DNA from: a bacterium
Lineage (GTDB): Bacteria > Zhuqueibacterota > Zhuqueibacteria > Zhuqueibacterales > Zhuqueibacteraceae
NCBI GenBank assembly: GCA_044869275.1
Contig: JBIOXB010000004.1
Coordinates: 1-53,727, forward strand
Direction of reading: 5' to 3'
Length of the DNA stretch: 53,727 nt
Part shown: piece by piece, positions 1,933 through 13,069 of the stretch
Position numbering within the stretch: position 1 is the stretch's first letter
Layout: the number at the start of each line of letters is the position of its first letter
Position numbers and translations under genes: made by a program
The notes under the pieces: generated by a model
Seen by the model: only the letters and a program-made list of their open reading frames with translations
What the model was told of the DNA's origin: nothing
Databases searched by the model: none

Positions 1933-3232
1933 ATGGCCACAAAATCAAGAGAGACTCCCATCAGTGCTGAAGCCCGCTCCGGATTGGAGCCGTGGGTACG
2001 CGCGGAGATGCCAGCACCGCCGATACCAAAAGGGCTCGGTTGGATCGCGGTCGTTGGTCCGGGTGTCATCATGCTCGGCGCCTCCATCGGCAGCGGCGAG
2101 TTTCTCCTGGGCCCTGCCGTTTTTGTTCGCCATGGGTTATCGCTGCTGTGGGTCACGGCCGTTGCAGTCTTTCTTCAAACCATTTTCAACACGGAATTGA
2201 TGCGCTATACGATCGCAACCGGAGAGCCGGCGTTCACGGGCTTCATGCGCACGTGGCCATCTTCCACGGCATGGGCGTAGTTTTATTCGGCGCTTTACTT
2301 TCTGCAGGTCGGCTGGCCCGCCTGGGCAGGCAACGCCGCGGGCGCGATCTTTTTTCTGTTTGCGCGCCGCCTCGCCGGGCCCGCAGACGCAACCTCAGTT
2401 TATCTGATCGGAGTTGGGACTTTTCTTATTTGCGTCGCAATTCTATTGGTAGGCCGGCGCATCGAGCACACGCTGGAGTTGTTCAATTGGGTGCTCATCG
2501 TGTGCATTCTTGGCGGCTTCATCGTTCTCGCCGCCATGTTTGTGCCAGCTCCAACATGGCTCGCCGGCGCGTTGGGATACACCGGCTTCGATACGGCGAC
2601 ACGGACTTTCGTATTTCTTCCTGAGGGCGCGGATTTCTTCCTGCTCGCCGCACTGGTGGCGTATCGTGCGCGCCGACCAGTGGGGAGTGTTCTTCACCGG
2701 TGCGATTCTGGGCATGGTGCTGCCGGCATTGCTCTACGTGACGTTCATTCCGCATGGCAGCGATATCCGTGGCTTGAGCATTGCGGCCGCGCTCGCCGCC
2801 AGCGCCGGAGCGCAGGCCGGACCCATGATCGCAGGGTTCATCGCCTTTCTCGGCGCTTGGATTCTGTTCAAGACTCAGTTGGACAACATGGAAGGATTGG
2901 TGCGGGCCGTTGCGGACATGCTCTGGAGCGGCAGCCGGCGAGTGCGGAGTTGGCGCGGGGGCGACGTGCGCGCCGTGTACTATGCTGTGCTCGGCGCCGT
3001 GGTCATCTGGGGCATGATGGCGCTGCGCCTCGCCCAGCCCATTGTGCTCTTGCAGCTCGGCGCAAACGTCGCAGGAGTGGTCTTCATCGTCGCCTCGTTG
3101 CATCTGCTCTACCTCAACACGCGGCTGTTGCCTCGGGAACTGCGGCCACCCTGGTGGCGCCGGGCACTTTTGGTGGGGATGGCGGCGTTTTATGGATTCT
3201 TCTTTGTGATGTCGGTACGAGGGTTGGTTTAG
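1933..3232 (+). pseudogene. Disrupted paralog of the Nramp-like transporter at 5115-6605
   Basis: Aligns along its length to 5115-6605. TGG>TAG nonsense at 2278-2280, and a 188-bp frameshifting deletion at 2656-2663 relative to the intact copy. Confidence 0.9.
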
Positions 3233-5114: not shown

Positions 5115-6605
5115 ATGAACAGTACCTCACTGCGAGAGACTGCAGTCGCTCCTGAAGCGCGCTCCGGATTGGAGCCATGGGCGCGTGCGGAGCTGCCCGC
5201 TCCGCCGATGCCCAGAGGGTTGGGATGGTTAGGGGTTGTAGGCCCGGGCGTTATCGTGCTCGGCGCGGCCATCGGCAGCGGCGAGTTTCTGCTGGGCCCG
5301 GCCGTCTTCGTACGTTATGGGCTGTCGCTGCTTTGGATAACAACCGTGGCGGTGTTTCTACAAACCATCTTCAACACCGAATTGATGCGCTATACCGTCG
5401 CGACCGGAGAGCCGGTGTTTAGTGGCTTCATGCGCACACCGCCTTCCTCCACGGTCTGGGCTTGGTTCTACGCTGGCATCTACTTTTTGCAGGTGGGCTG
5501 GCCCGCCTGGGCCGGCAACGCTGCCGGAGCGATCTTTTTTCTGTTCCTGCGTCGCCTCGCTGGACCCGCGGATGCCAATGCGGTGTACTTCATCGGAGTG
5601 GGCACCTTCCTGGTCTGCGTTGCCGTGCTGCTGGTGGGGCGGCGCATCGAGCGCACCCTGGAGTTGTTCAATTGGGTGCTGATCGTGTGCATTTTCGGCA
5701 GCTTCATAATCCTGGGTGCGATGTTTGTGCCGGCCACAACCTGGCTCGCAGGTGCAGCAGGGTTTGCGGGCTTTGACGCGGCCAAGCAATCGTTCGAGTT
5801 TCTTCCTGAAGGAGTTGACTATTTCTTGCTTGCGGCGCTCGTGGCGTACTCCGGGCAGGGGGGCGCCGGCAATATTACTCTCAGCAACTGGGCGCGCGAC
5901 AAGGGCTACGGCATGTCGCAGCATGCGGGCTACATCCCGGCCGTGGTTGGCGGCCAAAAGGTGCACCTCGCCCATAGCGGCTTCACGTTCACTCCCGACG
6001 CCGGTGCGATGCAGCGCTGGCGCGGATGGTGGCGTATTGTCCGTGCAGATCAATGGGGCGTGTTCTTCACCGGCGCGTTGCTGGGCATGGTGTTGCCGGC
6101 ATTGCTATACGTAACGTTCATTCCGCAGGGCAATGATATCCGCGGCCTGGGAATCGCGGCAGCGCTTGCGTCCAGCGCCGGCGCGCAAGCCGGGCCCATG
6201 GTCGCGGGTCTCATCGCATTTCTCGGCGCGTGGATTTTGTTCAAGACCCAGTTGGATAACGTAGAAGGTTTGGTGCGGGCAGTTACGGACATTCTTTGGA
6301 CCGGCAGTCGTCGAGTGCGAGCCTGGCGCGGGGGTGACGTGCGCGCTGTGTATTACGGCGTACTCGGGGTCGTTGTTATCTGGGGCATCATCGCACTGCG
6401 CCTTGCCCAGCCCATTATGCTCTTGTTGATTGGAGCGAATATCGCGGCAGTGGTTTTCATCATTGCCTCACTACATCTGCTCTACCTCAACACTCGGCTG
6501 TTGCCTCAGGAGCTACGGCCACCGATGTGGCGCCGCGTGGTTTTGGTGCTGATGACCTTGTTTTACGGATTCTTTTTCGTGCAGTCAATGCGCGGGCTTA
6601 TTTAG
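5115..6605 (+). CDS. Nramp-like (APC superfamily) membrane transporter
   Basis: GPGVIVLGAAIGSGEFLLGP motif, RYTVATGE, many TM segments. Confidence 0.75.
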   Translation: MNSTSLRETAVAPEARSGLEPWARAELPAPPMPRGLGWLGVVGPGVIVLGAAIGSGEFLLGPAVFVRYGLSLLWITTVAVFLQTIFNTELMRYTVATGEPVFSGFMRTPPSSTVWAWFYAGIYFLQVGWPAWAGNAAGAIFFLFLRRLAGPADANAVYFIGVGTFLVCVAVLLVGRRIERTLELFNWVLIVCIFGSFIILGAMFVPATTWLAGAAGFAGFDAAKQSFEFLPEGVDYFLLAALVAYSGQGGAGNITLSNWARDKGYGMSQHAGYIPAVVGGQKVHLAHSGFTFTPDAGAMQRWRGWWRIVRADQWGVFFTGALLGMVLPALLYVTFIPQGNDIRGLGIAAALASSAGAQAGPMVAGLIAFLGAWILFKTQLDNVEGLVRAVTDILWTGSRRVRAWRGGDVRAVYYGVLGVVVIWGIIALRLAQPIMLLLIGANIAAVVFIIASLHLLYLNTRLLPQELRPPMWRRVVLVLMTLFYGFFFVQSMRGLI

Positions 6606-6712: not shown

Positions 6713-8071
6713 ATGTCGATTTTGATGAACACTGGCAGATCCACCCCGGAAGCGCCGGCGCGGACGAGTCTTCGCCGCCAACTCGGGCTCGCTTCAACCA
6801 CGGCGCTGGTCGTTGGTGAAGTGATCGCGGTCGGGATCTTTCTCACCCCTGCCGAGATGGCGAAGTCCCTGGGTTCTCCTTTTTGGCTGCTGGTGATCTG
6901 GGTCGTCATGGGAATAATGGCGCTCAGCGGCGCGCTGTGTTATGGCGAGCTGGCCGCACGCTTTCCCGAAGCCGGGGGCGGATACGTTTATTTGCGCGAA
7001 GCGTACGGACCGGCGCCGGCGTTCTTATATGGCTGGAAATGTTTTTTTGTTATGGATCCGGGCCTTACCGCGGCCCTTGCAGTGGGACTCGCCAGTTATG
7101 CCGCTTACATCATCCCCCTGCCTCCGCTCGCGCAAAAGCTCGCCGCCATTGCCGCGATTTTTGTGCTGGCGGCCGCAAACATTTTGGGAGTGCAACTCGG
7201 CGCGCGACTCATGCGCTGGCTGACCGCGCTCAAGCTCGGCTTGTTAGCCTTCATGGTGGCATGGGGTTTCCTACTGCAACTCGGCGATTGGTCGAATTTC
7301 ACGCCCTTCATCGCCCAACGCGTAGGATCGGCTCCACTCATGAGCGCGCTCGCCGGCGGAATGGTCGCAGCGTTTTTTTCGTTCGGTGGATGGTGGGACG
7401 TCAGCAAACTTGCGGGTGAAGTGTGTGAGCCCGGCCGAATCTTGCCTCGTGCTCTCGCGGCGGGTGTGACGCTGGTGACTTTGGTCTATATCTTGACCAG
7501 CGCCGTCTTTTTCTACCTGGTGCCGCTCGCGCGGGTCACTTCAGGCGAGACTTTTGCGGCGCAGGCAGGTGAAGCTCTCTTTGGCCGCGCTGGCGGTGAG
7601 ATCTTCGCCGGCATCGTCGTGATTTCCGTGTTGGCTAGCCTCGCCGGATTTATCATGGCTGCTCCACGCGTATACTATGCGATGGCGCGCGATGGTTTGT
7701 TCCCCCGTGCGGCAGCAACACTTCACCCTCGCTTTGGCACCCCCAGCCGCGCCATCATGCTTCAGGCCGCGCTGGCGAGTTTGCTGGTCGCGCTCGGCAC
7801 CTTCAATCAAATTATTGCGTATTTTATCTTCGTGGCGGTATTATTTGTTGCGTTTACCGTGGCCGCGGTATTCGTGTTAAGAAGAAAGAGAGTGGATGAA
7901 ATCGCTTACCAAACGCCAGGCTACCCGGTGACGCCGCTGATATTTTTGACGCTGGTGGCGTTGTTGCTGTTTCTGCTGGCAGCACACCATCCCAAGCAAG
8001 CATTGCTCGGCGCCGGGGTGGTTGCGCTCGGTTGGCCGGCCTATTATTTTGCATTTCGTGAAAGGAGTTGA
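6713..8071 (+). CDS. APC family amino acid permease
   Basis: GIFLTP, ELAARFPEAGGGYVYLREAYG, PRVYYAMARDGLF, HPRFGTP, YQTPGYPVTP motifs. Confidence 0.9.
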   Translation: MSILMNTGRSTPEAPARTSLRRQLGLASTTALVVGEVIAVGIFLTPAEMAKSLGSPFWLLVIWVVMGIMALSGALCYGELAARFPEAGGGYVYLREAYGPAPAFLYGWKCFFVMDPGLTAALAVGLASYAAYIIPLPPLAQKLAAIAAIFVLAAANILGVQLGARLMRWLTALKLGLLAFMVAWGFLLQLGDWSNFTPFIAQRVGSAPLMSALAGGMVAAFFSFGGWWDVSKLAGEVCEPGRILPRALAAGVTLVTLVYILTSAVFFYLVPLARVTSGETFAAQAGEALFGRAGGEIFAGIVVISVLASLAGFIMAAPRVYYAMARDGLFPRAAATLHPRFGTPSRAIMLQAALASLLVALGTFNQIIAYFIFVAVLFVAFTVAAVFVLRRKRVDEIAYQTPGYPVTPLIFLTLVALLLFLLAAHHPKQALLGAGVVALGWPAYYFAFRERS

Positions 8072-8073
8072 CG

Positions 8074-8664
8074 ATGACCTGGATTCGAACCGTTCCGCTG
8101 TCCGAAGCAGATGAGAAATTGCGTCGTGCACTCGAAGCGCAACGCGCGTTGTATCCTATGGAGTATGCCCAGCCCGTGCATCCGACTGATGACGGGACCT
8201 CTGGCATCGTGGCCTCACACAGCCTGCTCCCCGACGCTTTGTACCACGCCTTTGCCACTTTCGGCGTGTTGATGTCGCCTGAGCTTCCGCTCACCCGGCG
8301 GCAGCACGAGATGATCACCACGGTGGTATCGGTCGCTAATCGCTGCCACTACTGAATAGAATCCCACGCAGAGTTTCTGCGTCGCGTCACTTTGGATGAG
8401 GATTTGGTGCGGACACTGCAAGAAGATTACAGATCCGCACCCATTAGCGCGCAAGAGCGCGTCATGCTGGATTACGTCGTGCAATTGACCAAAGCCGCGT
8501 ATAAAATCTCCAAACAGGATCACGAGAAATTGCGCGCTGCCGGTTTTGACGACAAAGCGATTCTGCAAATCACGCTGATCGCCTCCTGGTTTAATTACAT
8601 CAATCGGGTTGCAGATGCCCTGGGAGTCGGGCGCGAAACGGTGATCAATATGCCCGCAGACTAG
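8074..8664 (+). CDS. AhpD/carboxymuconolactone decarboxylase-like peroxidase-related enzyme, probable selenoprotein (U94)
   Basis: ORFs 8068-8355 and 8392-8664 are in one frame, separated only by TGA 8353-8355. Read-through gives NRCHY(U)IESH, the AhpD CxxCxxxH motif. C-terminus [24 protein letters not shown] before ATG 8074; 196 aa. Confidence 0.85.
8353..8382 (+). promoter_or_regulatory. Putative bacterial SECIS element
   Basis: Perfect 7-bp stem ACGCAGA (8366-8372) / TCTGCGT (8376-8382) with a G-initiated GTT loop, starting 10 nt after the in-frame UGA. Confidence 0.65.
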
Positions 8665-10215: not shown

Positions 10216-11274
10216 ATGCGACTCAAGCTAAAATTGATGGCGGCGGCATTCAAGATGTTCATGCGACAGCGCGAGGCCATCATCTGGACCATGATCCTGC
10301 CGCTGTTCATGATTTTCTTATTTAGCTTCGTCAAGTTCGATGGGCTGGGGCACGTTGCCATCGGAATCGTCAACCATTCGCAGGATACAACGCTAGTCAA
10401 TTTACTGCGCCCGATTCAAGCCTTGCGAATTTCGGAAGGAGGCGAAGACGACGAACTCGCGCTGCTGAAAAAGGGGGATCGCGCCATGGTACTCGTTATT
10501 CCGGCTTCGTTTCAACCGCTCGGGCATGATGCGCTGGCTCTCTATCTTAACGCCGAGCGACCACAGGAAACCCAAGCAGGAGAATTGATTTTGCAACGTG
10601 CGCTGGATGAGCTGGTCTTCCGTCAAAATCGCCTCCCGCGCCATACCCTCCACACCGAGCTGGTCAACAGCCGCGGCCTCACGTACATCGATTTCTTGCT
10701 CCCCGGCATTTTGGCCATGTCCATCATGCAAAGCGGCGTTTTTGGCGTGGCCTTCGGTTTTGTGATGCTGAAAAAACGCGGCATCCTCCGCCGGCTGCTC
10801 GCGACGCCGATGAATACCAGCGATTTCATTTTTGCGCAAGTGAGCACGCGCCTGCTCATTTTGATGACGCAGGTGCTGATCATGGTTGGCGCTGGCGTCT
10901 TGTTCTTCCATCTGCACTTTATCGGCAGCATCTTCAACATGATCATCGTGGGCCTGCTCGGCGGCACCGTCTTTCTTTCGATCGGATTCGCGCTTTCGGG
11001 GATCTCGAAATCGGAGGATCAAGTTGCGCCGCTCGCCAACATTATTACCTTGCCGATGCTGATGCTCTCCGGCGTATTCTTCAGCCGCTCAAATCTCCCC
11101 GGTTTTGCACACGTCATCACAGATTTCTTTCCGCTTACTTATCTTGCCGATGGCCTGCGCAACATTGCCATCGAAGGTGCGACCTTGACCGAAGTGTTCC
11201 CTCAACTTCTCGGCCTTGCTGCTTGGTCTATCATCACTTTGTTCATCGCGATCAAAGCGTTTCGGTGGGAGTGA
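10216..11274 (+). CDS. ABC-2 type exporter permease
   Basis: YIDFLLPGILAMSI, GILRRLLATP, LSGVFF, FPLTYL motifs; abuts the ATPase gene. Confidence 0.92.
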   Translation: MRLKLKLMAAAFKMFMRQREAIIWTMILPLFMIFLFSFVKFDGLGHVAIGIVNHSQDTTLVNLLRPIQALRISEGGEDDELALLKKGDRAMVLVIPASFQPLGHDALALYLNAERPQETQAGELILQRALDELVFRQNRLPRHTLHTELVNSRGLTYIDFLLPGILAMSIMQSGVFGVAFGFVMLKKRGILRRLLATPMNTSDFIFAQVSTRLLILMTQVLIMVGAGVLFFHLHFIGSIFNMIIVGLLGGTVFLSIGFALSGISKSEDQVAPLANIITLPMLMLSGVFFSRSNLPGFAHVITDFFPLTYLADGLRNIAIEGATLTEVFPQLLGLAAWSIITLFIAIKAFRWE

Positions 11275-11284
11275 TGAATTCGTG

Positions 11285-13069
11285 ATGAAAAAACTATTGA
11301 AAGTTTTGGGATATACCACGTTAACGTTGATCGCACTACTCCTCATCGGTATCGTCTGGTTCTATTTCGCCCGTACCGGCGCTGAAAAAAAAGCAATGGC
11401 CAAAGCAATACCGCCGCCGCCGGTTTTGAATGTGGGTGATCATGCTTTCCGCGATTTAAACCGAACCGGCGCTTTGGATATTTACGAGGATTCTCGCCAA
11501 CTGGTGCAGGCGCGCGTGGAAGATTTGCTGCGGCAAATTACCCTTCCGGAGAAAGCCGGGTTGATGATGCATACCTTTATTGCTTTCAATATCAATGAGC
11601 AAGGCGATTTGCCTGATCCGCTCAATCCCATGACTTCGCTTTCACCCGCCGCGGCTCTTTATGAGAAGCACATGAATTTCTTTAATCTCTTTATGGTGGC
11701 CAATCCCACCGCCAGCGCGCGTTTTACCAACAAAATGCAGCGCTTGGCGGAGCGCACGCGCTTGGGCATTCCGATCACGTTCAGCACCGATCCCCGGCAC
11801 GGCGCCATGCAACTAAATAGCGTCACCCTCACCTACATGCCGGGTGTGTCGCATTGGTGCGAGCCGGTCGGATTTTGGCGCGATGGGCGATTCGGCCTCG
11901 GTTGAGAATTTCGGGCGCATCGTTGCCAAAGAATATCGCGCCATGGGCATTCACACGGCTTTGCATCCCATGGCGGATTTGGCAAAGATCAGATTTATCC
12001 CGGCAACAACTTGAATTATCATCTCATTCCTTTCCGGGCCGCGCTGAAAGCCGGCACGGCGCAGATCATGCCTTATTATGGTGTGCCGATTGGCCTAAAA
12101 GGCGTAGAAGAAGTCGGCTTCGGATTCAACAAACACCTCATCGGAGATTTGCTGCAGGACCGCCTCGGCTATCAAGGCATTGTGTGCAGTGATTGGGGCT
12201 TGATTACCACGGTTAAAATGTTCGGGCAAACCATTATCGAAGCCAAAGACTACGGCGTGGAAAACCTTGCGCCGGCGCAAAAAATCAAAAAAGCTTTGGA
12301 GGCAGGCCTCGATCAGTTTGGCGGCGAAAGTGTGCCGGAGCTGGTCGTGCAATTGGTTGAAAGCGGTGAAATTCCGGAAGCGAGAATTGACCGATCGGTG
12401 CGCAAATTGCTGAAGCTGAAATTTCAACTCGGGCTTTTCGAAAATCCCTTCGTGGATGAACAAAAAGCAGCCGGGATTTGCGGCGATATTGCTCATGCGG
12501 ATTCAGGATATCAATCGCAATTGCGATCGCAGGTGTTATTGAAAAATGCGGCATTGCAGGGCAACCCTTTGTTGCCCCTGGTTCGCGGAACCAAAATTTT
12601 CGTCCACGGTTTTGACGCCAATGTCGCTGGGAAGTTCGGACAAATTGTCGATAGCCTGCATAAAGCCGAGGTTGCCGTCGTGCGCGTCCACGCGCCTTTC
12701 GAGCCGAAAGAAGGATTTCTTGAAAAATTTTTCCACCAAGGCCGGATCAATTTCACTGCGCAAGAATTGCAGCCCCTGCTCGCGATGATGCAGGCGAAAC
12801 CCACAGTCGTGAGCATTTTTCTCGAACGAGGTGTAGTGCTGACTGAAATCAATGAAGCAGCCGCCGCGATTGTGGCAAATTTCGGGGCAAGCGATCAAGC
12901 TATTTTCGATGTGATCTTCGGAGAATTCAATCCCGTTGGAAAATTGCCCATCGAGCTGCCGCACTCGCCGGACGCCGTGGAACGCCAGCTCGAAGACGTG
13001 CCGCACGATTCGGAGAAGCCGTTGTTTCCGTATGGATTCGGGCTGAGTTACACGCGCCAGTCAAGATGA
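11285..13069 (+). pseudogene. Glycoside hydrolase family 3 beta-glucosidase, frameshifted and internally deleted
   Basis: GH3 motifs lie in three frames: RTRLGIPITFSTDPRH, AKEYRAMGIHTALHPMADLA, IMPYYG...VCSDW...PLFPYGFGLSY. Extra T in the run at 11873-11876; deletion junction at 11980-11984 removes the expected EPRW..R/KHFPG segment. Confidence 0.85.

Follow-up and report, generated by a model that had tools for sequence, protein, structure and literature searches.

A probable AhpD-like CxxU selenoprotein gene with a near-invariant in-frame SECIS element, located directly downstream of a LAT-like permease gene

AhpD-like proteins carrying selenocysteine (Sec, U) in a CxxU motif have been catalogued since 2005. 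They form a row, assigned to TIGR01926, in a table of PMC13188914, 299 Sec forms are given for GOS in PMC2398784, and the family also appears in a SECIS figure legend of PMC1088965, in PMC1794560 and in BSepDB (PMC13326102). The statement of the initial annotation that Sec-containing AhpD-like proteins had already been described is borne out by these sources. Among the relatives with two Cys residues, the proton relay comprises E118-C130-H132-C133-H137 in AhpD of Mycobacterium tuberculosis and E36-C48-Y50-C51-H55 in PA0269 of Pseudomonas aeruginosa, a weak peroxidase (PMC3141380). The mycobacterial protein is re-reduced by a lipoylated protein fed by NADH, and the CxxC motif of Deinococcus DR1765 is needed for H2O2 resistance, both according to the review PMC8945050. 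The fold is also capable of thiol-dependent reductive dehalogenation, as in the tetrabromopyrrole debrominase Bmp8 (PMC7918430). An assigned function for the Sec forms of the AhpD-like family was not found in the literature examined.

The locus described here lies in a stretch of 53,727 nucleotides, referred to below as the window (Table 1). The initial annotation had described two ORFs as one frame interrupted by TGA alone, and the sequence is as described: a single frame of 196 codons runs from the ATG at 8074 to the TAG at 8662-8664, with codon 94 (TGA, 8353-8355) as its sole internal stop. As also claimed, this codon stands at the second Cys of the AhpD CxxCxxxH motif, which here reads N-R-C91-H92-Y93-U94-I-E-S-H98 with the histidine in place. 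The further claim that the downstream ORF could start only at a TTG lacking a ribosome-binding site was overstated, as GTG 8407, which is preceded by GAGGA 4 nt upstream, and ATG 8464 are also possible. Misassembly does not account for the TGA, nor is the codon particular to this assembly; contigs X2 (8292-8495) and X3 (8219-8477), which were obtained in the same study from two further runs and are not fully independent of the source, span it with zero differences. Matches in the RNA runs X5 and X14 comprise only short pieces of relatives, mostly less than 90% alike, and promoter and terminator scans gave counts at chance level.

Table 1. Features of the AhpD-like locus, with positions counted from the first letter of the window
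Feature	Position	Strand	Basis
APC-family LAT/SLC7-like amino-acid permease; stops 2 nt before the selenoprotein ATG	6713..8071	+	Profile matches, co-conservation
Shine-Dalgarno-like AAGGAG, 6 nt 5' of ATG 8074	8062..8067	+	Sequence
Predicted AhpD-like (peroxidase-related, TIGR01926) selenoprotein gene, 196 aa with U94	8074..8664	+	Frame, profile scores, AF2 model
Glu79, position of the AhpD proton-relay glutamate (M. tuberculosis Glu118)	8308..8310	+	Kept in 120/120 (best 120 of 877 database homologs); spacing as in PMC3141380
Cys91, first residue of CxxU (M. tuberculosis Cys130 position)	8344..8346	+	Kept in 120/120 (best 120 of 877 homologs)
TGA, predicted Sec94 (M. tuberculosis Cys133 position)	8353..8355	+	TGA in the best 80 GTDB loci and at least 120 metagenome loci; Cys in 42/120 database homologs
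Predicted SECIS upper stem-loop, stem 8366-8372/8376-8382, loop GTT 17 nt after UGA	8365..8382	+	Conservation, bSECIS criteria

The product is predicted to be an all-helical CMD/AhpD-fold protein of 196 amino acids. The read-through protein, with U read as C, passes the TIGR01926 model with 119 bits (cut-off 81.8) and the Pfam CMD model with 39 bits (cut-off 23). It falls below the cut-off of TIGR00777, the model for the M. tuberculosis-type AhpD that acts as AhpC adaptor (20.5 bits against 191.95), and far below those of NF041238 (56 against 175) and NF053654 (39 against 310), the AhpD/YciW-related (seleno)proteins, which have a related CxxU AhpD fold and of which it is not a member. Of the best 120 of 877 database homologs, all have E79 and C91, and 119 have H98. 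An AF2 model built from a 53-row alignment reached a pLDDT of 92 and superposes on 6K40 (the first-ranked structural match), 2PRR and 2PFX with TM scores of about 0.80, while the top sequence matches in the PDB are peroxidase-related AhpD-like proteins with Cys at site 94. A profile score above the cut-off, a conserved UGA with Cys homologs, the relay residues and the fold together place the protein in the AhpD-like CxxU selenoprotein family. The gene is an ordinary member of this long-catalogued family, and the class of system is not new.

The locus shares with the described family (TIGR01926/COG2128, 'AhpD-like 1') the profile model, the CxxU motif and a SECIS immediately after the UGA. When set against the published descriptions of the family, it belongs to a tight subfamily with 61-90% identity among its members and about 40% to other TGA-bearing AhpD-like paralogs, which occurs mostly in Acidobacteriota and Gemmatimonadota and combines an 18-nt SECIS that hardly varies with linkage to a LAT-like permease. 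D. radiodurans DR1765 (6K40), 2PFX, 2PRR, 3C1L and 2OYO have the same fold (TM about 0.76-0.81, E 1e-24 to 1e-17) but carry Cys where Sec is predicted here, with 24-28% identity in structural alignments; CxxCxxxH is visible in the alignments of 2PFX, 3C1L and 2PRR. The relay spacing E79-C91-Y93-U94-H98 equals that of M. tuberculosis AhpD and PA0269, although both are distant overall (TM 0.54 and 0.65). No ahpC gene was found among the scanned neighbours in the window, and an AhpC-adaptor role is without support from context. Bmp8 (6OHI/6OHJ) is of the same fold class (TM 0.73-0.74, profile E 1.6e-6), but at only 14-15% identity it is a far weaker match than the peroxidase-related proteins, and the scanned window neighbours include no halogenase cluster.

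TGA recurs at codon 94 in homologous loci. A search of relatives yielded 30 loci, the present one included, of which 25 have TGA at the motif, two have Cys and three weak ones gave no clear call, with close orthologues (78-90%) in four of 60 relatives. A scan of GTDB genomes confirmed at least 589 relatives, and in the best 80 of these, which were examined, TGA occupies the aligned codon in 80/80; they come from Acidobacteriota and Gemmatimonadota, with single Planctomycetota and KSB1 records and one unclassified. A metagenome pattern allowing any TGN at the codon returned at least 120 matches, with TGA in all 120 of those listed. The expectation of the initial annotation that an alignment would show Cys or Sec at position 94 held for the Cys forms and for the TGA in homolog DNA, but not for the protein database, where the best 120 of 877 homologs have W in 75, C in 42 and another letter or a gap in three.

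The database W forms are the point in favour of a reading of UGA as Trp, under genetic code 4 or by plain read-through. Against it, a pattern with TGG at codon 94 gave no metagenome match, TGA is the commonest stop of the source genome (1182 of 2276 long ORFs), and the only tRNA with a TCA anticodon in that genome is tRNA-Sec. In the four W clusters that were looked up, the full-length W members lie on contigs of approximately 1-7.5 kb, while three of the four also hold 93-residue N-terminal halves ending at CHY or C-terminal halves of 78 or 84 residues, some on contigs of up to 1.3 Mb. Since the W forms stand on short contigs and the halves on contigs reaching 1.3 Mb, the W forms are probably produced by gene callers that switch genetic code on short contigs, and a Trp reading has a negligible chance of being correct. 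The separate halves in the databases, together with the GTG 8407 and its GAGGA, could also point to two genuinely separate genes or to a nonsense pseudogene, the C-terminal half starting at that GTG. However, in all 200 loci examined (the best 80 from GTDB and 120 among the metagenome matches listed) the internal break is TGA and never TAA or TAG, while the terminal stops of the same loci use all three stop codons. The break would fall inside the catalytic helix and part C91 from H98, the codons of the ten intervening residues are conserved, the hairpin is frozen, and unbroken Cys forms exist, which makes a split or pseudogene highly improbable. In the homolog DNA examined, neither a Trp codon (TGG) nor a genuine split, which had been named as findings that would count against Sec, was encountered at this position; the codon is TGA or a Cys codon.

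In a quick tree of 93 rows, made from alignment A2 and every second GTDB locus, the subfamily forms a clade on a long stem (SH-aLRT 99), and 29 of 32 Cys-form proteins fall within the subfamily clade (97). This nesting suggests reversion from Sec to Cys. The relatives also hold at least two further groups of TGA-bearing AhpD-like paralogs (approximately 33-45% identity), each with a conserved SECIS-like stretch of its own (L026-L040, L046-L050), and some of their genomes carry two TGA-bearing AhpD-like paralogs.

The perfect 7-bp hairpin with a G-first loop reported to start 10 nt after the TGA was found at 8366-8382, with the stem ACGCAGA (8366-8372), the loop GTT (8373-8375), the stem TCTGCGT (8376-8382) and a free energy of -8.2 kcal/mol. 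The bSECIS model, as given in PMC13188914, calls for a loop of 3-9 nt with G in one of its first two positions, a stem of 4-16 bp, a distance of 16-37 nt from the UGA and an MFE of at most -7.5, and the hairpin fits each of these by hand, with its GTT loop, 7 bp, 17 nt and -8.2 kcal/mol. Its stability is not significant against shuffled sequences (z -0.45 to -1.28; 21-62 of 200 shuffles fold equally well), and a loose filter for CxxU or UxxC followed by a hairpin passes 296 places in the source genome, mostly spurious among the matches listed, so that the local evidence of the initial annotation would not have sufficed alone. What raises the hairpin above chance is its conservation across homolog loci. 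The identical 18-mer CACGCAGAGTTTCTGCGT occurs in 76 of the best 80 GTDB loci, which are 68-78% identical to the window at the nucleotide level and have a GC content of 50-71%, and in 71 of 80 metagenome loci, where the stem is weakened in two of 80. The stem-loop overlaps the codons H98-A-E-F-L-R103, beginning with that of the relay histidine. At these six codons the share of the top codon is 0.97-1.00, whereas 81 further conserved degenerate columns average 0.60 and reach 0.89 at most; the codons employed are rare elsewhere in these genes (GCA 10%, CGT 9%, TTT 28%). Judged by this comparison of homologous loci, the hairpin is under selection at the RNA level, with its codons synonymously frozen. 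Distant TGA-bearing paralogs mostly carry another hairpin near the same place.

The proposed look-up of selA, selB, selC and selD in the source genome succeeded for the first three, with selA, selB and a tRNA-Sec (TCA) all above their cut-offs, while selD, which is present in 55 of 60 relatives including the same-genus genome G001, was not found by HMM or by tblastn with a same-genus SelD in this assembly, which is 94% complete in 255 contigs. The best selD-like match (C207) was rejected as a paralog of the AIR-synthase family, with 78 bits against a cut-off of 125 and a higher score for HypE. It could therefore be proposed that the gene descends from selenoprotein genes but sits in a strain that has truly lost selD, where UGA94 now terminates translation and the gene has fallen silent or is decaying; were the loss real, the strain would be unable to make Sec. 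In line with such a loss, selB lies mid-contig (C86:35256-37130) with no adjoining selD, unlike at four of seven selD loci of relatives, and selU, a second use of selenophosphate, was not found in the source genome. In the own copy two residues conserved in the subfamily are changed, and broken genes lie nearby in the window. Against a loss, there is no damage to selA, selB, selC, the SECIS or a second selenoprotein candidate, and dN/dS is low (0.05-0.06 before and 0.11-0.15 after the TGA, relative to G001 and G016), so that, as far as these ratios indicate, purifying selection acts on both halves of the gene. In addition, the neighbours of selD in G001 are likewise without an orthologue in the source genome; they are a gene of purC type and one for an RND adaptor, which G001 and G007 share at 62% identity. 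The joint absence of selD and its neighbours suits a segment that was left unassembled, although it is no proof; the argument from the missing purC is weakened because the source genome holds another match to PF01259 (SAICAR synthase), albeit none resembling purC of G001. A gene put out of use by a true loss of selD is considered very unlikely.

The changed residues in the own copy are D141 (A here) and T143 (Y here), at window positions 8494-8502, which are conserved in 80/80 and 79/80 of the best 80 GTDB loci, and the own copy also carries a C-terminal extension of eight residues (8638-8661). The second selenoprotein candidate, at C169:2879-3133 on the minus strand (locus L271), is SelL-related (NF040769, 154 bits against 120); it has a UxxC motif, and the hairpin after its TGA is less tidy. 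One of ten AhpC/TSA matches in the source genome is a selenoprotein candidate, as compared to none of five PF04879 molybdopterin matches and none of the four other CMD matches. Among 201 evenly sampled genomes of the Acidobacteriota (the phylum of G061; the background count for selA and the denominators include the unpublished G088), 19 contain the subfamily, with 21 genes, 20 of them with TGA and one with TGC. selA is present in 18/18 TGA-form genomes against a background of 160/201, a link that is supportive only and statistically weak, the kin not being independent. In the TGC-form genome (G092) neither selA nor selB was matched, and both the hairpin and the first Cys are lost.

In bacteria, SelB loaded with Sec-tRNA reads UGA as Sec when it is bound to a downstream hairpin. 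With UGA94 in the place of the second Cys of CxxC and a conserved SECIS following in frame, sequence comparison favours, with a probability of about 0.92, one intact gene recoded at UGA94 for an AhpD-like selenoprotein. The earlier proposal of a 196-residue redox selenoprotein is hence supported, to the extent that sequences can do so, by the TIGR01926 score, the TGA conservation and the frozen SECIS. SelB with Sec-tRNA(Sec) would bind the GUU-loop hairpin and insert Sec at UGA94, at the position of Cys133, the attacking thiol of M. tuberculosis AhpD. By analogy with AhpD chemistry, the U94 selenolate, together with the E79-H98 relay, may reduce a peroxide or a disulfide, after which U94 and C91 would form a selenenyl-sulfide with C91 as the resolving residue, and a cellular dithiol, for instance a lipoylated protein, could re-reduce it. 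The protein is thus likely to be a selenol/thiol peroxidase or disulfide reductase, and oxidative-stress defence or disulfide reduction appears its most likely role, somewhat more probable than the other functions combined. The main alternative is that it reduces a substrate imported by the adjoining permease.

The best solved relatives of this permease are of the LAT/SLC7 type (xCT, b0,+AT, LAT1 and one bacterial protein; E 1e-56 to 1e-46), and it is the probable operon partner of the selenoprotein gene. A close homolog lies at most 240 nt upstream in 25 of the best 80 of at least 589 GTDB relatives, and one occurs somewhere in 22 of the 66 loci for which 1.5 kb or more of upstream DNA is available, most loci being without it. 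When the best permease matches are taken at E <= 1e-98, a cut chosen after viewing the list, the subfamily is present in 14 of the 17 genomes concerned versus 19 of 201 overall, and 13/17 of these loci, versus 0/13 loci with weaker permease matches, have an AhpD-like gene no more than 1.5 kb away. The next gene upstream encodes a single TonB-receptor subfamily (62-82% identical) in 13 of 21 permease-adjacent loci, and of the 12 genomes in which this receptor is matched at 61% identity or more along the entire query, two weaker matches having been set aside, ten have the AhpD subfamily and 11 the permease. The receptor subfamily was not found in the source genome, and the window holds the permease and enzyme only. 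For much of it, the co-occurrence of receptor, permease and selenoenzyme could, judging from these sequences, derive from shared ancestry or joint transfer.

Individual occurrences of the order TonB receptor, LAT-like permease and AhpD-like Sec gene in Acidobacteriota include loci L072, L078, L093, L097, L100, L102, L105, L110, L117, L121, L131, L137 and L140 and genomes G070, G114, G138, G233 and G263, while in G092 and G225 the permease stands beside two or three AhpD-like genes. Elsewhere in the window, two copies of an Nramp-like transporter gene (NF037982; 68-83% identical) occur at 1933-3232 and 5115-6605 on the plus strand, the first of them disrupted by a TAG in frame near 2278 and by a change of frame near 2650-2800. 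In G010, too, this gene is found at most a few kb from the AhpD-like Sec gene. A GH3 beta-glucosidase-like gene (11216-13069, plus strand) is apparently divided among two or three ORFs. At 202-1266 lies a stand-alone MetE-like (Meth_synt_2) gene; in one locus from an acidobacterium, a homolog 70% identical to it (L118:5574-6629) comes directly after the AhpD-like Sec gene. Creatininase/MftE-like genes lie near the AhpD-like Sec gene in G001 (L058:3282-4088) and G010 (L060:12831-13607).

As a tentative and rather unlikely extension, the TonB receptor, the LAT/xCT-like permease and the selenoenzyme might constitute an import-and-reduce module of soil bacteria rather than include a general peroxidase. 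Equally doubtful, and to be taken jointly with the module, is a cargo in the form of an oxidised amino-acid-like compound, either a disulfide or diselenide of the cystine/selenocystine type or a halogenated or N-chlorinated amino acid. No paper on an AhpD selenoprotein with an amino-acid permease, or with a TonB receptor in Acidobacteriota, was found in the literature searched, and the module may already be in print. According to PMC13188914, no dedicated prokaryotic route of selenium uptake has been identified; if the module were real and its cargo held selenium, it would bear on such uptake.

Public annotation halves this widespread soil-bacterial gene or writes Trp at its catalytic site, so that surveys overlook it. 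The SECIS, in frame and almost without variation, shows cleanly in a natural gene how RNA constrains codon choice, and it makes a convenient reporter element. The one lead still to be followed is the gene's recurrent association with an amino-acid transporter, and the neighbourhood of receptor, permease and selenoenzyme provides a handle on the substrate of the AhpD-like Sec family.
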